From the NCBI RefSeq assembly GCF_024223415.1, contig NZ_CP100500.1: a stretch of DNA of 64,000 bases; one strand, given 5' to 3'. Below, piece after piece: positions 40,769 to 63,356 of the stretch (the stretch's first letter is position 1; every line of letters starts with the position of its first letter). The notes under the pieces were generated by a model. That model did no database searches. It saw only the letters and a program-made list of their open reading frames with translations, and was not told the DNA's origin. A program made the position numbers and the translations under genes. The stretch is from Escherichia coli (GTDB taxonomy: Bacteria > Pseudomonadota > Gammaproteobacteria > Enterobacterales > Enterobacteriaceae).

Positions 40769-41729
40769 ATGTTTTCAATGATATTAAGCGGGCTAATTTG
40801 TGGTGCTCTGCTGGGATTTGTCATGCAGCGTGGGGGTTTTTGCGTTAATTCAGGCGGGCCTACTGACTTACGAAGCCGGGGCGTTCCCGTGGCTTGGTAC
40901 TGTTATAGGTGGGTATATCTTCGGGCTGGGAATTGTTCTGGCGGGTGGATGTGCCACCGGGACCTGGTATCGCGCGGGTGAGGGATTGATCGGCAGTTGG
41001 ATCGCGCTTTTCACTTATATGGTGATGAGTGCGGTGATGCGTTCTCCACACGCCAGTGGTTTAAATCAAACCTTGCAGCACTACACTACTGAACATAACT
41101 CTATTGCTGATACTTTTAATTTGTCTGTGTGGCCGTTGGTTGCCGTTTTGCTGGTGATAACGCTCTGGGTGGTGATGAAAGAGTTGAAGAAGCCAAAACT
41201 GAAAGTCGCGACCTTACCGCCGCGCCGAACCGGGATCGCTCATATTCTGTTTGAAAAACGCTGGCATCCCTTTGTCACTGCTGTACTCATCGGTTTGATT
41301 GCGCTTTTAGCCTGGCCCCTGAGTGAAGCAACCGGACGCATGTTTGGGTTAGGAATCACTTCCCCAACGGCCAATATTCTGCAATTTCTGGTCGCGGGTG
41401 ACGTGAAATACATTAACTGGGGCGTTTTCCTGGTGTTAGGGATCTTCGTGGGGTCATTTATTGCAGCCAAAGCGAGCCGTGAGTTCCGCGTTCGCGCAGC
41501 TGATGCACAAACAACAGTACGTAGCGGGTTAGGTGGTGTACTGATGGGCTTCGGTGCCAGTATTGCAGGTGGTTGCTCTATCGGTAATGGACTGGTTATG
41601 ACTGCAATGATGACCTGGCAGGGCTGGGTTGGCCTTGTATTTATGATTCTCGGAGTCTGGACTGCGTCCTGGCTTGTGTATGTTCGACCGCAGCGTAAGG
41701 CGCGACTGGCAACTGCTGCGGCAAATTAA
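40769..41729 (+). pseudogene. yeeE: yeeE-like (YeeE/YedE family thiosulfate transporter) gene split across two reading frames
   Basis: ORF 40769..40981 carries the N-terminal TM segment; ORF 40800..41729 (+1 frame, no ATG) carries the rest including both GGC(A/S)xG motifs; the span is 961 nt, not a multiple of 3. Confidence 0.6.
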
Positions 41730-48061: not shown

Positions 48062-48256
48062 TTACAGCAACTGGTGAGGGCTGGCATAAGTTGCCGGTGT
48101 TTCGGTAGAGTCACGGTCATCCACCACGCGGAGTGAATAACCTTTTTCAGCGGCCTTATTAATCAGTTCAGTGATATTAACACCATCAATGTCAACGGCA
48201 ATGTGCCCCATATCCAGCGCCTGTACGTTAACGCTGTCGGCTTCCAGTGTCATCAT
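48062..48256 (-). CDS. yeeW: prophage protein YeeW
   Basis: 64-aa ORF recognised as YeeW; start overlaps the cbtA stop. Confidence 0.7.
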   Translation of the reverse strand: MMTLEADSVNVQALDMGHIAVDIDGVNITELINKAAEKGYSLRVVDDRDSTETPATYASPHQLL

Positions 48257-48626
48257 TTCGCCTCCGGATACTTACCCAGGGTAATGTTATTTACCGTTCT
48301 GTAATTGTCGCGGGTCATCAGGCCGGTCGCCCTGCGAGCCCGGAGGATATCGATGCTGTTTATTAACTGAGAGCGGGTACAGGCGCTGAATCCCGGCTGG
48401 TCGGTAGCACCAGCGCGTATTTTTCCACGAGAAAGTTCACCGCATCACACAGTGAAATGCCTGCCTCAATATGCTGCTCAATCACACGTTCATCGGCAAA
48501 AGGTGTGTCATTCAGTGTGAGGCCATAGTGCTGGTCCAGCAGTCGGGACAGCAGTATCTGCCAGATTTCAACAGGAGACGGGCGAGAACTGGTCGCCTGC
48601 CCGGGTAATACAGGTAATGTTTTCAT
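48253..48626 (-). pseudogene. cbtA: frameshifted type IV toxin cbtA (yeeV)
   Basis: ORF 48363..48626 matches CbtA through …[10 protein letters not shown] and then diverges; the expected C-terminus ([40 protein letters not shown]) reads in another frame. Confidence 0.7.
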
Positions 48627-52780: not shown

Positions 52781-53851
52781 TTATTTAATCCGGGCCATCG
52801 CGTTTCTCAGTGCCAAATCTGCCTCTTCCGTTATATCCAGGCTTTTCTGCAATACCGCCTCTGACCGGGTCAGTGCCTGACGTGCTGCCAAGGGGTTCCG
52901 GATATGCTCCATCGTCAGCATCGTGTCTTCATAGCCCTGCTGACGCCAGATGTCGGTATGTGCCGATGTAAAACTGAGCAGACCGCCACTTTTGCCTTCT
53001 TCCCCTGTGTGTTTCAGCCTTTTCCGGGGACGGATTTCAAGGATTGTGGTGTCCGGAAAAGCCCGGCGATCCCATAAAGAACCGTCACTCAGATGCGTCA
53101 CAATCACCATATTGCATCCGGCATCGACCAGAGGCGTTACAGGGGTATTTCCCTGCATATTTCGCCATCCTCCCATCCCACCATCACCGAACATTGTCCC
53201 CTGAACCTCACGGGGATGGAACAACAGGGGCAGTGCGGCTGACGCAAGCAGAGCCTCTTTCTGCTGTCCGCGGGGCAGACTCTGGATATGCTGAAAAACG
53301 GCGTTTTTCGTGGTTCCGGCACCCAGTTCAGCACGAATGCAGTCAATAATATCCTGCATGCCCCCTTCTGTGGGGTACAGCGACACATACAGCGGTAGCC
53401 CGTCTGCCAGAGCATCAGTATCAAGATAATGATCCATCAGCGCTGTCAGAGGCTCATCTGACAACAGCGGCTGAGCCATCGGATTGTCGAAGCCGTTGAT
53501 TATCGATATATGGCGAAGAAGTATCGTAAGCAGTGCTCCTGCACGTCCGGGGATCTGGCAGAGGTTCATTGCCTGGAACAATTTTTTCAGCAATGAAAAG
53601 TAAACCGATCGGTTTACCGACAGCACCTGATTATTCCCCAGATGATCCCAGAGCGCCTCCAGGCGTACGGCAGCTTCTGACAGATCGGGAGAGGCCGCGA
53701 TAATGGCACCATTGAATGCGCCAATGCTGGCCCCTGAAACCATGCTGATCTGTGTACCACACTCTGCCAGTGCCTTAACCACTCCCGCCTGATAAGCGCC
53801 CACCGCCCCGCCACCGGACAGCACCAGCCCCGTTTTCATTTCTGTACTCAT
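52781..53851 (-). CDS. patatin-like phospholipase
   Basis: 356-aa ORF with glycine-rich oxyanion loop (SGGGAVGAYQAG), GxSxG nucleophile motif (GASIG) and catalytic DGG (FGDGGMGG); no signal peptide; start overlaps the upstream gene's stop. Confidence 0.8.
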   Translation of the reverse strand: MSTEMKTGLVLSGGGAVGAYQAGVVKALAECGTQISMVSGASIGAFNGAIIAASPDLSEAAVRLEALWDHLGNNQVLSVNRSVYFSLLKKLFQAMNLCQIPGRAGALLTILLRHISIINGFDNPMAQPLLSDEPLTALMDHYLDTDALADGLPLYVSLYPTEGGMQDIIDCIRAELGAGTTKNAVFQHIQSLPRGQQKEALLASAALPLLFHPREVQGTMFGDGGMGGWRNMQGNTPVTPLVDAGCNMVIVTHLSDGSLWDRRAFPDTTILEIRPRKRLKHTGEEGKSGGLLSFTSAHTDIWRQQGYEDTMLTMEHIRNPLAARQALTRSEAVLQKSLDITEEADLALRNAMARIK

Positions 53852-54753
53852 GCAGCCCCCTTCTGAAATATTTCATCGACCATACTTTCAGAGAGGCGTT
53901 CTGCAGAGCAGAGGCGAGGCATGCGAACCGGTAAGTGTTCTGCAGCCTGCGTGGTTGACCAGATCACCGGATGCTGCTCTTCACTGCACCAGTCTCCCAG
54001 CCAGTTAATCGCGTCATGCCACTCGTTATCTGCCTGCTCCCGGCCCTGACCACCAAGCCAGTCCAGAGTGTTCAGACGCACGGTTGCACTACCGCCACTC
54101 TCCTGTGCCATCTGCGTTAATGCTTTATGTCTGAGAATATCCAGTAGCTGGTTAACCTGGCCTGTTTCGCTCTGACGTATCACATCACCAAACGCGCCCC
54201 AGCGAAGCTCTTCAAGTGCCACATAACAACGTCCGGCAGGGGAAAATGACGCATATCGCCCGGCGCTCCACCATGAGAATATCTGCTCAAGATGTAACTG
54301 CGCCCGCTGAACCTGGTCAACACGGTGGAGTTTTTCTTCAAGATGATTCAGTTTATGGTGAACCTGATCGGCCAGGGTGAGTAACTGCTCCCGCGTATCT
54401 GCGGAATAATGCGCCAGCCTGGCTGTATCACTGACCAGTGAACTGACCCTGTCGTTTACCCGGGTAATCGCGTAGTTTGTGGTGGCAAGTGACGTTGTCA
54501 TCTCCGTCAGCCAGCGCAGGGACGCCTCAACGCCCTGTGCAAGCGACGCATTGATGGCATTCTGCCGTGCAGCGCCTTCGCCGGTCAGCCCCTCTTTTAA
54601 ACGCCGGAAGAACGTGCGCTCTCCGGCCGTGCGGATATGCTCCTGTGCAACATCGATTCCGTTTGCGAAATCAACCACAAATTTTTCAGGAAGACAGGTG
54701 AGTACCTGACATACCCGGTTATCAGCAATTTGTTGAATAAATGGTGAAGTCAC
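53848..54753 (-). CDS. hypothetical protein (partner of the dynamin-like GTPase)
   Basis: 301-aa ORF, predicted alpha-helical, GTG start overlapping the stop of the upstream gene (GTGA) with a GGAGA RBS about 10 nt upstream. Confidence 0.55.
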   Translation of the reverse strand: MTSPFIQQIADNRVCQVLTCLPEKFVVDFANGIDVAQEHIRTAGERTFFRRLKEGLTGEGAARQNAINASLAQGVEASLRWLTEMTTSLATTNYAITRVNDRVSSLVSDTARLAHYSADTREQLLTLADQVHHKLNHLEEKLHRVDQVQRAQLHLEQIFSWWSAGRYASFSPAGRCYVALEELRWGAFGDVIRQSETGQVNQLLDILRHKALTQMAQESGGSATVRLNTLDWLGGQGREQADNEWHDAINWLGDWCSEEQHPVIWSTTQAAEHLPVRMPRLCSAERLSESMVDEIFQKGAA

Positions 54754-57146
54754 AGCATTGTCTCCAGCTCTTCCCTCAGCGCCTTACTGTCAGTAATGAG
54801 CTCAGGAACCCTTTCATTTAATGCCTGAAGTCGCCCGGTAAGTCGTTCCTGCGCCTGCTGATCGCGTTTATGATCTTCAGAGCTCTGAATCAGCGTGTTA
54901 CGCAGTTGTTCAACTTTCTCCCTGAATGCGCAGAAAAAGGCATCGATTTCCTGGCGGACGGGCTGGTTAATATCCTGCTCAATGGATGCCTGCAGCTCCC
55001 CGAAATATGCCCGGGTCAGTGACATAACTTCCTCTCTGACCTTGTTGATATTGATCACGCTGCGACTCACATCCTCGTCATAGTTTTCCCAGCCCAGGTC
55101 ACTGGTGCCAAACCATCGACAAACGGTTCCCCATACGCCACTCTGCCGACGGCGACGGGTGACGGTCTCCGTTCTTTCCTCCATAAGCGCACTCAGATTT
55201 ATTTTTACCGCGAGCCGGGTCTGTAACTGGCTGACTGCCGGAAAACTGATTTTTACGGTAAAGCCCTCATCCTCCAGGCGGGCATTGATGCGACCGGCAA
55301 TGTTTTCTGTGGCGTACAGGGCCGTGCCACGAAAACCTGTTTCAATCCCGCTGACGATTTTCTCCAGCTCAGGCCGGAACTGTGCTTCAGCCTCACGGTG
55401 CAGGCTGGTCACGGTCGATTCGATTTGCGTCATCAGTTCAAGGGCTTCCCTGCGATCACTGAATTTTATTTCGGGGCTGTCCGGGGCAAAATCTCGTTTC
55501 CTGTAATCCTCCCGGCCCTGGTTGTTGATACCGGACCATTGAGAAATTTTCCCCCATAATCCGGACTGAGACCTTCGTTGTTCTGCGTCTTCTTCCTCCA
55601 GCATTTGCTGTTCTTTGCGTTTACCGCTTCTGAAATAGTCATTCAGCTCCTCTTCCAGTGAGGTGCAGACCCCCGTCAGTAATTCCCGGGTTTTAGTATC
55701 GATCTCCTCCATGGCCATTCTGACATCAGTGGTCATCTGCTCCTGACAGTCCGCGATTTCCCGGATATCCGCAAGCAGGCTGGTGATATGCGACTGCAGT
55801 GACTGAATGCTTTGCTGTAGCCCCTGATGGCGTAACAACAGGTATTCACTGATATTTTCTGCATTCTGCATCAGTTTTGCGGCGGCAGAGTCAACCGCCA
55901 GTGCCGCAGCTCTGGAATGTGAGCTCTGTATGACTTCCGTTATCAGTTGATCGATAAGTGAGCCTTCCCACAGGTCTGTCGCCCCTTCAGTTGCCAGTTC
56001 ACTGTCTTTACAGACGTATTCTTTTTTCATGCAACCGAAGGCACCTCTGATAAAATCATCGACCCAGGCTTCATCAACAGGAAGGGTTCCGTTTTTCCGT
56101 AACTCATGAAGCGCACGGTTAGCCAGGTATGCCTGGCGTGAGGATCCGGGATAAACGCGGGAGGCGGGCAGCACATCGCTGTTCAGCATTGCCGGAACTT
56201 TCTGGCGTACGGCATCTGCCCCATCGCCATTGCGGTCTTTCTCATCAAATTTATTGACCAGTACAAACAGGCGGCCGGCTGATACGTCAGCAATGGCATT
56301 AAGCTCTTTACGGACGTCTTCATCCGCTTTTGAGTTCATCTGGGTGTAATCCATCACAGCCAGAACCGCAGAGGCTTTCTGCAGTTGATCCCGCATCATC
56401 ACTTCCATCTGCGGTTGTCCGGCCTCATTAGGGCCGGGGGTATCCAGCAGTGTGAGTGTTCCCTGGCATGCATCCATCCCCACCAGATGGCTGAATTCCA
56501 CGTCGATCACCGGCAGTTTCTGCACTTCTGCGTATTCATCAAAAGGAAATTCAGTCCCCATTGCCGCAGCAAGACGAACCAGATCGTTTAACGATGCCAG
56601 TCCGGTAAAGATTTCCTCCTCCCCGTGGTATTCATTTTTGAGCCAGCCATCATCCGTCAGAATATCCAGCAGTTCGCGGGTATCCCCGGTTTGCTGCAGG
56701 GTCTGTGCGACCTGCTGTCCTGCCGGGGTGGCGAGTTTTTCCTGCAGTGTGATTAATAAATTGCGGACAGGCTGAATATGTTCCAGATGGAGAACCGGCT
56801 CAGTTTTTCCGGGAACGTGGCGGATGAGCGTCGGTACAGAGGTCATGGGGCGGTTACGGTTAGGCAGAATTTCCTGCCCCACAATGGCGTTGATGGTGGT
56901 TGATTTGCCTGCTTTCATCGTGCCGACAACAGCCAGCACCATCTCCCTGCGGGCGGTTTTGATTTGTTCGCCCTCCAGCTCCTCAATTCTTTTCAGTGCT
57001 TTCTGTTTATCAAAAAGCAGTCTGTTTTCGTTCTTACTGTCAGATAACACATCTGGCTCCTCAACCATTTGCCGGAGCAGATTAATGTTCAGTTGCAAAA
57101 GTCGGTCGGCTTCATCACAAAGCAGGGCGATGTTCTTTTCGTGCAT
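54750..57146 (-). CDS. dynamin-like large GTPase
   Basis: 798-aa ORF with G1 P-loop (GTMKAGKST), switch-I Thr, G3 (LLDTPG) and G4 (LVNKFD) in the N-terminal third, then long helical/coiled-coil regions. Confidence 0.8.
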   Translation of the reverse strand: MHEKNIALLCDEADRLLQLNINLLRQMVEEPDVLSDSKNENRLLFDKQKALKRIEELEGEQIKTARREMVLAVVGTMKAGKSTTINAIVGQEILPNRNRPMTSVPTLIRHVPGKTEPVLHLEHIQPVRNLLITLQEKLATPAGQQVAQTLQQTGDTRELLDILTDDGWLKNEYHGEEEIFTGLASLNDLVRLAAAMGTEFPFDEYAEVQKLPVIDVEFSHLVGMDACQGTLTLLDTPGPNEAGQPQMEVMMRDQLQKASAVLAVMDYTQMNSKADEDVRKELNAIADVSAGRLFVLVNKFDEKDRNGDGADAVRQKVPAMLNSDVLPASRVYPGSSRQAYLANRALHELRKNGTLPVDEAWVDDFIRGAFGCMKKEYVCKDSELATEGATDLWEGSLIDQLITEVIQSSHSRAAALAVDSAAAKLMQNAENISEYLLLRHQGLQQSIQSLQSHITSLLADIREIADCQEQMTTDVRMAMEEIDTKTRELLTGVCTSLEEELNDYFRSGKRKEQQMLEEEDAEQRRSQSGLWGKISQWSGINNQGREDYRKRDFAPDSPEIKFSDRREALELMTQIESTVTSLHREAEAQFRPELEKIVSGIETGFRGTALYATENIAGRINARLEDEGFTVKISFPAVSQLQTRLAVKINLSALMEERTETVTRRRRQSGVWGTVCRWFGTSDLGWENYDEDVSRSVININKVREEVMSLTRAYFGELQASIEQDINQPVRQEIDAFFCAFREKVEQLRNTLIQSSEDHKRDQQAQERLTGRLQALNERVPELITDSKALREELETML

Positions 57147-57363
57147 TATTTAACCTTCCTAAGACGCATTTTCATGACAACCACGGAGGAGGTCATTTAC
57201 TACAAACGATCGTTTATAACGATCGATATGATAGTAACGATCGATACATTCTATTAACTTGAGAAACACAACGCAAGGGGACAACCCGGGTATGGCTGCG
57301 TTTGCATAGTGTTTTCATGGAGTTAAAAATCTGTAACAACAGCCTGGTACATCACCACCGGGT

Positions 57364-58280
57364 TCAGAAGAAAATCCAGTTCCATACCGCGCGGGCAACA
57401 GAGACCACCGAGTCACGGACGGCGCGCAGAACCGTGCGTGCAACAGAGGCAATGCAGACGCTCTCCGCCGTGTCAAATATCCGGTCCACCGCACCGGTAA
57501 ACTGTTCACGGGCCTGAGACCGGACAGACTCCGTGCGCAGCTCGTCCTGCAGGCGGGTCATCAGGGGACTGGCGGCATGGTCGGGAAGTGCTGTCATGAG
57601 CGCACTGACCAGCGTATCCAGTTCCCAGCCGGTGCGGGCCGATACGGCAACAACCCGATGTACGGGCCGGAACAGACGGAATACCGCCTCCGTTTTTTCG
57701 CGAATGTTCTGTGCCTGTGCGGGAGAAGGCTGAATACCGGCCATATCCCATTCATGGCAGGGCTCCGTTTTATCGGCCTGCATCACCACAAACAGTACCC
57801 GCTGATGTCCCCGGTGCAGGATGTGTCGCCAGAAATACTCATCCACAGACAGGGCACGGTCATCGGCTTTAATCAGCCACAGTACCAGGTCCAGTTCGAG
57901 CAGAATGTCACGGTACAGGGCTTCATACTCTGCATCCCTGTCCCGGCTCTCGCCCACCCCACCCCGGGCAGGTCAGTGATAACCATGCTGTGACCATGGC
58001 CATTCAGACGGAAGCGCTGCACTTCCCGGGGGCCGGCGTGAACATCACTGACCGGGGTGACCTCCCCCTGAAACAGCGCATTACAGAGTGAGGATTTACC
58101 GGCCCCGCTTTTACCCATAATGCCAGGCACGGGTTCGTGACTGGTGAGTTTGCGCAGATGTTCCAGGATGTGACGGGAAAGTGAGTAAGGCAGGGAGGAG
58201 AGCGGTTTTTCAATTGCCTCAATGGCATCAGACGGATTCATACATGTATTCCCGGTGAAAAAAGACAAAACCCCGCGCAC
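57364..58280 (-). pseudogene. YeeP/YfjP/YkfA-family small GTPase, frameshifted
   Basis: N-terminal part with P-loop (GKSGAGKSS) and DLPGVG in ORF 57873..58280; C-terminal part in overlapping ORF 57364..57957 in another frame; break coincides with a tandem ACCCC-ACCCC repeat. Confidence 0.7.
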
Positions 58281-58324
58281 CGGAAAGGTGGCGGGGGATT
58301 CACGGAAATAATATCTGTCTGAAA

Positions 58325-61043: not shown

Positions 61044-61427
61044 ATGCGCGCTAAAGAAAGACTTCCCCGGAAACACTATTCCCCTGAATTCAAAATGGAA
61101 CTGGTCAGGCTGGCTCTTGAAGAAGAAGGCAGTATTGCCGCACTGGCCCGGAAACATGACGTCAATGATAACCTGCTCTTTAAATGGATAAGGCTCTGGC
61201 AGCGTGAAGGGCGGGTCTGTCGGCCCCGAAAAAACTCATCGTCGCTTCCTGCCCTGATACCCGTGCAGCTTCAGGCGGGCTCTTCTCTCCCAACCTTCGA
61301 ACTACCATCCTGCTCTCCTCCCGCTACCTGCCACATAAAATGTCGGGGAGGAGAAATAACACTGACTCATCCCTCTGCTGAACTCATGAGCACTGTCCTG
61401 CGCGAACTGATGCGGGGGCCTGTATGA
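61044..61427 (+). CDS. IS66-family accessory protein (orfA, HTH)
   Basis: 127-aa ORF with N-terminal transposase-type HTH (RKHYSPEFKMELVRLALEEEGSIAALARKHDVNDNLLFKWIR). Confidence 0.8.
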   Translation: MRAKERLPRKHYSPEFKMELVRLALEEEGSIAALARKHDVNDNLLFKWIRLWQREGRVCRPRKNSSSLPALIPVQLQAGSSLPTFELPSCSPPATCHIKCRGGEITLTHPSAELMSTVLRELMRGPV

Positions 61428-61771
61428 TAAATCTTCCCGCAGGCACAAAAATCTGGCTGGTTGCCGGTATCACCGATATGCGCAACGGCTTCAATGGCCT
61501 CGCCGCAAAGGTGCAGACCGCGCTGAAAGATGACCCGATGTCCGGCCACGTCTTCATCTTCCGGGGACGCAGCGGCAGTCAGGTAAAACTGCTCTGGTCC
61601 ACCGGCGATGGTCTGTGCCTGCTGACAAAGCGACTAGAACGTGGTCGCTTCGCCTGGCCCTCAGCCCGCGATGGCAAAGTGTTCCTGACGCTGGCGCAAC
61701 TGGCGATGCTGATGGAAGGTATCGACTGGCGACAGCCAAAGCGGTTACTGACATCCCTGACCATGTTGTAG
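61424..61771 (+). CDS. IS66-family TnpB (orfB)
   Basis: 115-aa ORF with the conserved TnpB signature (LPAGTKIWLVAGITDMRNGFNGL); 4-nt overlap with orfA. Confidence 0.85.
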   Translation: MINLPAGTKIWLVAGITDMRNGFNGLAAKVQTALKDDPMSGHVFIFRGRSGSQVKLLWSTGDGLCLLTKRLERGRFAWPSARDGKVFLTLAQLAMLMEGIDWRQPKRLLTSLTML

Positions 61772-61820
61772 CGCTCTTTATCCTGGTTGTCGCAGAATAA
61801 GCCTGGTAAAATACAGGCTT

Positions 61821-63356
61821 ATGAACGACACCTCTTCTGACGACATCCTTCTGCTGAAACAGCGCCTGGCCGAACAGGAAGCGTTGATCCACGCCCTGCA
61901 GGAAAAGCTGAGCAACCGGGAACGCGAAATAGACCATCTGCAGGCGCAACTGGATAAGCTGCGCCGGATGAACTTCGGCAGTCGTTCCGAAAAGGTATCC
62001 CGCCGTATCGCGCAAATGGAAGCTGACCTGAACCTGCTGCAGCAGGAAAGCGATACGCTGACCGGCCGGGTGGATGACCCGGCAGTGCAGCGCCCGCTGC
62101 GTCAGACCCGCACCCGCAAACCGTTCCCTGAGTCACTCCCACGGGATGAGAAGCGGCTGCTGCCGACTGAGCCGTGTTGCCCGGAGTGCGGTGGTTCGCT
62201 GAGTTACCTGGGTGAGGATGCCGCCGAACAGCTGGAGCTGATGCGCAGCGCCTTCCGGGTTATCCGGACAGTCCGTGAAAAGCATGCCTGCCGTCGGTGC
62301 GATCGCATCGTTCAGGCCCCGGCTCCTTCGCGCCCCATCGAACGGGGGATCGCCGGACCGGGGCTGCTGGCCCGAGTGCTGACCTCAAAGTATGCAGAGC
62401 ACATACCGCTGTATCGCCAGTCGGAGATCTATGCCCGCCAGGGTGTAGTGTTGAGTCGTTCTGTACTGTCGGGCTGGGTGGATGCGTGTTGTCGTCTGCT
62501 GGCACCGCTGGATGAAGCCCTTCAGCACTATGTCCTGACCGACGGCAAACTCCATGCTGACGATATGCCTGTCCCGGTGCTGTTGCCGGGCAATAAGAAG
62601 ACGAAGACCGGGCGCTTATGGACGTACGTTCGAGACGACCGCAACGCCGGATCAGCGCTGGCCCCCGCAGTGTGGTTCGCTTACAGCCCGGACAGAAAAG
62701 GTATCCACCCTCAGACCCATCTTGCAGGCTTCAGTGGCGTACTGCAGGCTGATGCCTACGCCGGGTTCAACGAGCTCTACCGCGACGGCCATATAAAGGA
62801 AGCCGCGTGCTGGGCCCATGCCCGCCGAAAAATCCACGATGTTCACGTCCGTACCCCGTCAGCCCTGACGGAGGAGGCGCTGAAACGGATCGGCGAGCTG
62901 TATGCCATCGAGTCGGAGCTCAGAGGTAAAAGAGCAGAGGAACGGCAGGCAGTCCGGCACCAAAAAGTGCTGCCGCTGCTGGCGTCACTGGAGGGGTGGC
63001 TGCGGGAGAAACAGAAAACCCTCTCAAGGCACTCAGAACTGGCGAAGGCGTTCGGGTATGCGCTGAACCAGTGGCCGGCGCTGACCCGCTATGCAGAAGA
63101 TGGCTGGGTGGAGGTGGATAATAACATTGCCGAAAACGCCCTACGACTGGTCAGTCTGGGGAGAAAAAACTGGCTGTTCTTCGGCTCGGATCATGGTGGT
63201 GAGCGCGGTGCGTCACTGTACAGTCTTATCGGGACGTGCAAATTAAACGGCGTGGATCCGGAACGCTATCTGCATCATGTACTTGATGTCATCGCCGACT
63301 GGCCTGTGAACCGGGTGGGTGCTCTGCTCCCGTGGCGGGTTACTCTGCCTGCCTGA
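61821..63356 (+). CDS. IS66-family transposase (orfC)
   Basis: 511-aa ORF with N-terminal leucine-zipper-like region, zinc-finger Cys pairs (CPECGG…CRRCDRI) and the IS66 DDE-type core. Confidence 0.9.
   Translation: MNDTSSDDILLLKQRLAEQEALIHALQEKLSNREREIDHLQAQLDKLRRMNFGSRSEKVSRRIAQMEADLNLLQQESDTLTGRVDDPAVQRPLRQTRTRKPFPESLPRDEKRLLPTEPCCPECGGSLSYLGEDAAEQLELMRSAFRVIRTVREKHACRRCDRIVQAPAPSRPIERGIAGPGLLARVLTSKYAEHIPLYRQSEIYARQGVVLSRSVLSGWVDACCRLLAPLDEALQHYVLTDGKLHADDMPVPVLLPGNKKTKTGRLWTYVRDDRNAGSALAPAVWFAYSPDRKGIHPQTHLAGFSGVLQADAYAGFNELYRDGHIKEAACWAHARRKIHDVHVRTPSALTEEALKRIGELYAIESELRGKRAEERQAVRHQKVLPLLASLEGWLREKQKTLSRHSELAKAFGYALNQWPALTRYAEDGWVEVDNNIAENALRLVSLGRKNWLFFGSDHGGERGASLYSLIGTCKLNGVDPERYLHHVLDVIADWPVNRVGALLPWRVTLPA

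Follow-up and report, generated by a model that had tools for sequence, protein, structure and literature searches.

A five-nucleotide tandem duplication interrupts a yeeP-type GTPase gene at the CP4-44 site in one clone of Escherichia coli

Organization of the GTPase locus

The gene described here occupies the K-12 CP4-44 chromosomal site in a stretch of 64,000 nucleotides of E. coli contig NZ_CP100500.1, which was analysed as a whole and is referred to below as the window. The island carrying the gene is followed by tmaR, yeeA, sbmC, dacD, sbcB, and the his operon. Comparison of the annotation of E. coli Combat11I9 with CP4-44, CP4-6, and CP4-57 of K-12 places the gene in a CP4-type island, upstream from a module comprising DUF932, antirestriction, yeeS, yeeT, cbeA, and cbtA genes. 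The gene is encoded by the minus strand and contains a tandem ACCCC unit. The features of the locus are the following.

57364..58241, minus strand: whole yeeP-type GTPase pseudogene, from an ATG at 58241 to a stop codon at 57364-57366 (878 nt)
57953..57965, no strand assigned: period-5 tract with the extra unit; the wild type is the 8-nt GGGGTGGG, and the 5-nt gap relative to S88, yfjP, and ykfA falls exactly here
57873..58241, minus strand: ORF for the N-terminal fragment, 122 aa (95 native and 27 out-of-frame residues, TGA stop)
57364..57957, minus strand: ORF for the C-terminal fragment, 197 aa, with a GTG start inside the tract (native residues 95-290)
58271..58285, minus strand: terminator-like hairpin and T-run after the upstream gene of 383 codons (consensus scan only)
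52781..57146, minus strand: downstream, co-oriented module of three genes, all intact, next to the GTPase pseudogene
54750-57146, minus strand: dynamin-family protein, 798 aa, a CrfC/RdcA-like paralogue (556 bits, below the equivalog cut-off)
53848-54753, minus strand: RdcB-family protein, intact
52781-53851, minus strand: patatin-like phospholipase, intact

Plus-strand positions 57956-57965 read ACCCCACCCC (ACCCC-ACCCC) and, as previously noticed from the sequence, the GTPase gene is split there into two overlapping ORFs. The latter ORFs are in different frames of the minus strand, extend over 57873..58280 (N-terminal part) and 57364..57957 (C-terminal part), and overlap by 85 nt. The repeat belongs to a 13-nt tract of period 5 (57953-57965; CCCACCCCACCCC, or GGGGTGGGGTGGG on the minus strand), in which four equivalent registers are possible for the inserted unit. 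The aberrant frame ends at a TGA codon (57873-57875). In-silico removal of 5 nt joined ...DLPGVG to ESRDRDAEYEALY... in a single ORF reading ...MVITDLPGVGESRDRDAEYEALY..., in agreement with the original prediction, although the size and start of the restored protein had to be revised. Approximately 300 residues from position 58280 had been anticipated, whereas the repaired ORF encodes 290 residues from the ATG at 58241. This ATG is likely to be the true start since both the PGAP annotation and the reference protein WP_001069811.1 give 290 aa. The GTG at 58280 is an unlikely start because it is overlapped by the terminator-like hairpin of the upstream gene. The pseudogene is thus 5 nt longer than the intact 873-nt allele.

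The repeat was not considered significant by itself. The window contains 64 tandem 5-mer tracts, compared with 46 ± 6 in shuffled sequences, which is not unusual. Because a tandem 5-mer alone is not rare, the weight of the case rests on the comparison with intact alleles.

The dynamin/RdcB/patatin module was found in 936 complete genomes at a query coverage of at least 80%. Membership of the GTPase and its neighbours in the Eleos/Dynamins (LeoA-LeoBC) anti-phage systems was considered but is not supported, as the LeoBC matches returned by PADLOC were weak, partial, and confined to the P-loop region. The GTPase scored 22.8 bits, with 80 of 601 profile positions aligned, and the dynamin-family protein 19.8 bits. 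In the intergenic region that separates the pseudogene from the dynamin-family gene, a 39-bp segment (57205-57243) contains all four AACGATCG matches of the 64-kb window, three in direct orientation with spacings of 13 and 18 nt and one overlapping inverted copy. The cluster overlaps a terminator-like hairpin (57207-57225) and a promoter-like site, and could, on the basis of its sequence, be a candidate regulator binding site. On the other side, upstream from the GTPase and the gene for the 383-aa hypothetical protein, coordinates transferred from the Combat11I9 annotation indicate a complete IS66-family element (tnpA, tnpB, and tnpC; approximately 61044-63356) flanked by remnants, namely a fragment of an AAA ATPase gene and a frameshifted hypothetical gene. 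The same arrangement is present in S88 and 181.1.

Intact alleles, paralogues, and the K-12 remnant

The 917-nt region spanning the two ORFs matched E. coli Combat11I9 (NZ_CP021726.1) at 100%. The corresponding locus of this strain, CDC27_RS10370, is annotated by PGAP/RefSeq as "GTPase family protein; frameshifted". The frameshift is thus already labelled in RefSeq. The search matched 4,545 records, and each of the 39 other hits listed covers 912 nt, five fewer than 917. At the same position, S88 and MB15 harbor an intact gene of 873 nt encoding WP_001069811.1, a 'GTPase family protein' of 290 aa that is also found in many other strains. This gene is a single ORF with one GGGGT unit, and it occupies an identical position in the island with the same neighbours as in the window: a 383-aa hypothetical protein upstream and the dynamin-family, RdcB, and patatin genes downstream. 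Apart from the 5-nt gap, the DNA of the repaired ORF is 100% identical to the intact gene of S88.

K-12 encodes two intact putative GTP-binding proteins of 287 aa, YfjP (CP4-57) and YkfA (CP4-6), which are paralogues rather than orthologues of the GTPase studied here. Both are collinear with the repaired protein over the full length, including the C-terminal tail, with 50.9% (YfjP) and 49.5% (YkfA) identity over 285 aligned residues. This collinearity supports the assignment of the repaired protein to the YeeP/YfjP/YkfA family. The shared features comprise the G1 motif, the sequence DLPGVGES, the C-terminal tail VVSVARAVW..FF, and a place in CP4-type islands. Intact YfjP and YkfA, as well as the orthologues, have one unit at this site and read DLPGVGES through it. 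The corresponding tract of yfjP and ykfA, GGCGTGGGC, is less repeat-like than that of the window. The alignment with intact homologues of the yfjP/ykfA/yeeP type, which had been put forward as a check, did not reveal any gene with the double repeat in frame.

More distant similarity was detected with TRAFAC GTPases of the Era/Der/MnmE class (MMR_HSR1), for which the homology concerns the G domain (E = 1.2e-05 for Era 7c1o, in an alignment that matches G1, G3, and a G5-like motif). Unlike these enzymes, the GTPase has MQAD in place of NKxD at G4, is devoid of ribosome-binding domains such as KH, and has a C-terminal half that is unique to the YeeP/YfjP/YkfA family. NCBIfam contains no family-specific model for the GTPase, and the matches to the Era, MnmE, and Der models were all far below the equivalog cut-offs. 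Judging from titles and abstracts, the papers retrieved for yeeP, yfjP, and ykfA contain incidental mentions only, and no functional study is apparent among them.

A parallel had also been drawn with the pseudogene status of yeeP in K-12. It is valid for the position and for the outcome. K-12 yeeP (b1999), a pseudogene of the cryptic prophage CP4-44, is the positional counterpart of the gene, located to the left of yeeS-yeeT-cbeA-cbtA ... yeeA-sbmC-dacD-sbcB. The two pseudogenes are 96.2% identical over the 553 nt that they share. The parallel does not extend to the lesion. K-12 yeeP is a 5'-truncated remnant that matches nucleotides 365-917 of the query only, and is devoid of the P-loop and of the duplication site. 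Since this remnant starts downstream from the duplication site, sequence comparison indicates that the K-12 lesion and the 5-bp duplication are independent. The surroundings of the two pseudogenes also differ, as K-12 yeeP sits downstream from an IS2-disrupted yoeA gene and is followed by isrC and flu (Ag43) instead of the dynamin/RdcB/patatin module.

Distribution of the duplication

Two queries centred on the junction, 100 and 50 nt long, were compared with 5,426 complete E. coli genomes, of which 4,103 hold the stretch (8,076 places). The duplication was present in only two of the 4,103 genomes, that of Combat11I9, from human urine in Hong Kong, and that of 181.1, from a turkey in Canada. 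When the 122-aa N-terminal fragment was looked up as an exact sequence, four other contigs were retrieved, belonging to GCA_054663415.1 and to the assemblies of runs ERR11813105, SRR12464869, and SRR36455807. A look-up of the C-terminal fragment added GCA_014903915.1, GCA_007646745.1 (plus four similar places), and GCA_965254715.1. Direct inspection confirmed GGGGTGGGGTGGGC at loci L001, L004-L010, and L012, corresponding to nine or more assemblies or runs of independent origin, which stand in for the resequencing initially suggested as a check of the double copy. The nine carrier loci originate from RefSeq, GenBank drafts, and three SRA-run assemblies, and each of them contains exactly two units.

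The 197-aa C-terminal fragment was rejected as a proxy for the duplication because it is misleading: at seven of the ten places shown, the gene is wild type and truncated by the end of the contig. The frameshift is specifically marked by the N-terminal fragment, which ends in 27 aberrant residues. The contigs from SRR12464869 and SRR36455807 (L007 and L008) are short and end at nucleotides 460 and 466 of the gene query, approximately 145 nt downstream from the duplication. These breaks could reflect another repeat, an IS insertion, or fragmented assemblies.

Alignment of the window with NZ_CP021726.1 covered 63,964 bases (99.96% identity) and showed 25 substitutions and one single-base indel. 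At this level of identity, the window would come from either a sister isolate of Combat11I9 or another assembly of that clone, polished in a different way. The carriers differ from the window by 0 to 6 substitutions over the 1.3 to 8 kb that they share. With a 25-kb backbone query, extending from the his operon to the O-antigen cluster, identity of at least 99% was observed only for Combat11I9 (100%) and 181.1 (99.9%), every other genome displaying at most 97.2% identity with 73% coverage. The duplication marks one clone because the two carriers with complete genomes are also the only two genomes sharing the backbone at 99% or more. The single origin was deduced from the shared backbone together with the near-identical flanks. 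Combat11I9 is an O-:H28 urinary isolate with a ColV-type plasmid (bioRxiv 10.1101/2023.04.27.538512). The simplest reading is that one recent insertion would have been followed by vertical inheritance in the O-:H28 Combat11I9 / turkey 181.1 lineage. The 5-bp duplication thus provides a marker for one E. coli clone comprising Combat11I9, 181.1, and related drafts.

In 181.1, the frameshifted gene (L004, 6452-11052) is additionally split by IS21-family elements, IS100-like and ISSso4-like, that amount to approximately 4.6 kb. The insertion is located at query nucleotides 719-722, and the 4-nt overlap suggests a target-site duplication. This insertion fits with decay of the gene after its inactivation.

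The closest wild-type islands were those of two poultry strains, MB15 and GPEC548, which are 99.9% identical to the window over 8 kb; for MB15, the differences amount to 3 substitutions and the 5-bp gap. The existence of near-identical island alleles with one unit, in principle revertants, and the nature of the lesion, a change in a tandem repeat within a G-rich tract, raised the possibility of a phase-variable switch, in which the pentanucleotide tract would reversibly expand and contract, with the GTPase switched on or off accordingly. However, MB15 is not a sister revertant since, unlike both carriers, it gave no match to the backbone query at a coverage of 80% or more. With just 2.6 units, compared with 1.6 in the wild type, the tract is much shorter than typical contingency tracts. 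Just two states were observed across the 8,076 places, the two-unit state being confined to two genomes with one backbone, and all nine carriers were at exactly two units. The long tract with copy-number polymorphism among close relatives that would define a contingency locus was therefore not found, and we consider reversible switching very improbable. A recurrent mutational hotspot was similarly rejected, as both carriers with complete genomes, and no other genome, have the 25-kb backbone of the window and no other copy number was seen.

A sequencing or assembly artefact, in which the true genome would have a single ACCCC unit and an intact gene, was suggested by the first search, in which a single record matched the full 917-nt query perfectly, and by the "frameshifted" label of two other genes, cbtA and tsuA, in the same region of the Combat11I9 record. 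However, the lesions of cbtA and tsuA are also present in the window, which originates from an isolate other than Combat11I9. A 5-nt insertion that is not located in a homopolymer is an atypical platform error, and the identical duplication was found in assemblies or runs (at least nine) made independently from different hosts, in different laboratories and countries. An artefact is excluded for practical purposes because nine independent assemblies or runs carry the duplication. The RefSeq "frameshifted" call thus reports a genuine mutation, not an error of sequencing, at this locus, which is mainly a matter of annotation hygiene.

Impact of the frameshift on the GTPase and proposed origin

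The repaired protein matched the Pfam family MMR_HSR1 over residues 40-148 (E = 7.7e-13, 49 bits for a cut-off of 21.9). Within this domain, it contains both a P-loop G1 motif (GxxxxGK[ST]) and a G3 motif (DxxG), which were identified by alignment with Era 7c1o as GKSGAGKS (residues 43-50) and DLPG (residues 90-93), respectively. The equivalents of G4 (MQAD, residues 152-155) and G5 (VSA, residues 198-200) were located by the same alignment, and both belong to the C-terminal fragment. The frame is broken after residue 95, two residues beyond the G3 motif, which separates G1-G3 from G4-G5. As a result, the MMR_HSR1 match of the N-terminal fragment is limited to residues 40-100, half of the domain, and the N-terminal product is devoid of G4 and G5. 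Submission of the 197-aa C-terminal fragment alone to a Pfam search did not return any match. In comparison to the continuous 873-nt ORF of S88 and MB15, the gene thus displays the features of a frameshift pseudogene, 5 additional nucleotides and a premature stop after 27 aberrant codons. Since the frame break separates G1-G3 from G4-G5, the mutation is expected, from the motif content of the two fragments, to abolish GTPase function.

Two ways of retaining function despite the frame break can be envisaged. According to the first, the duplication would not have killed the allele but created a low-frequency reversible switch, or a P-loop fragment (G1-G3 and the 27-residue tail) modulating the dynamin-like/RdcB/patatin module, in which case the clone would have rewired the function rather than lost it. 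We regard this reading as highly speculative, with very little chance of being correct. According to the second, which we also regard as very improbable, the GTPase would still be functional owing to a programmed +1 ribosomal frameshift or to separate translation of the two ORFs into pieces that would reassemble or act as a split GTPase. The 85-nt overlap of the ORFs, the annotation of both pieces by gene callers, and the in-frame GTG following a G-rich stretch in the C-terminal ORF would be compatible with this. However, the homologues are encoded in one frame, so that the frameshift is not conserved, and the sequence contains no evident slippery or stimulatory signal of a recognised type. 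The G-run, read from the sequence, is located approximately 4 nt from the GTG, a poor Shine-Dalgarno spacing. In addition, the G domain is cut between G3 and G4, the C-terminal fragment has no domain match of its own, and the IS insertion of 181.1 points to relaxed selection. Some residual function of the C-terminal piece is possible in view of its sequence, as a GTG-started ORF of 197 codons remains and is annotated by gene callers.

The original prediction attributed the pseudogene to a slipped-strand duplication. The identity of the repaired ORF with the S88 gene and the single unit of yfjP and ykfA are in agreement with this proposal, and we infer both slippage as the cause of the insertion and the loss of protein function. 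The wild-type tract, GGGGT-GGG, would offer a 3-nt microhomology. Re-pairing of the nascent strand one unit back during replication would lead to copying of 5 nt twice, generating GGGGT-GGGGT-GGG. The +5 insertion would then shift the frame after residue 95, leading to translation of 27 aberrant codons up to the TGA stop. The resulting product would retain G1-G3 but lack the rest of switch II, the G4-like MQAD motif (guanine specificity), G5, and the conserved C-terminal tail, and should fail as a working GTPase. The mutation probably arose once and recently, on an island allele otherwise near-identical to the intact copies. With high confidence, the feature is thus an ordinary loss-of-function frameshift pseudogene of a small GTPase of the YeeP/YfjP/YkfA type, located in a CP4-44-site island and presumably generated by one slippage event in one clone. 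It would add one more case of decay among the poorly understood island GTPases of this family.

Two other lesions were observed in the window. The tsuA gene (yeeE, thiosulfate transporter; 40769-41729, plus strand), flagged as frameshifted by RefSeq in Combat11I9, has a 98-bp deletion relative to K-12 (gene nucleotides 59-156), with a junction near 40827. The deletion is located between imperfect 17-bp direct repeats, AGCGTGGGCGTTTTTGC and AGCGTGGGGGTTTTTGC, and is the second lesion of the slippage/direct-repeat type in the window. The cbtA gene (48253-48626, minus strand) encodes the toxin of CbtA/CbeA, a type IV toxin-antitoxin pair. It has lost one base relative to K-12 (G at gene nucleotide 221), which leaves an ORF of 87 codons, while the annotation of the near-identical Combat11I9 record shows an intact gene for the antitoxin, cbeA.
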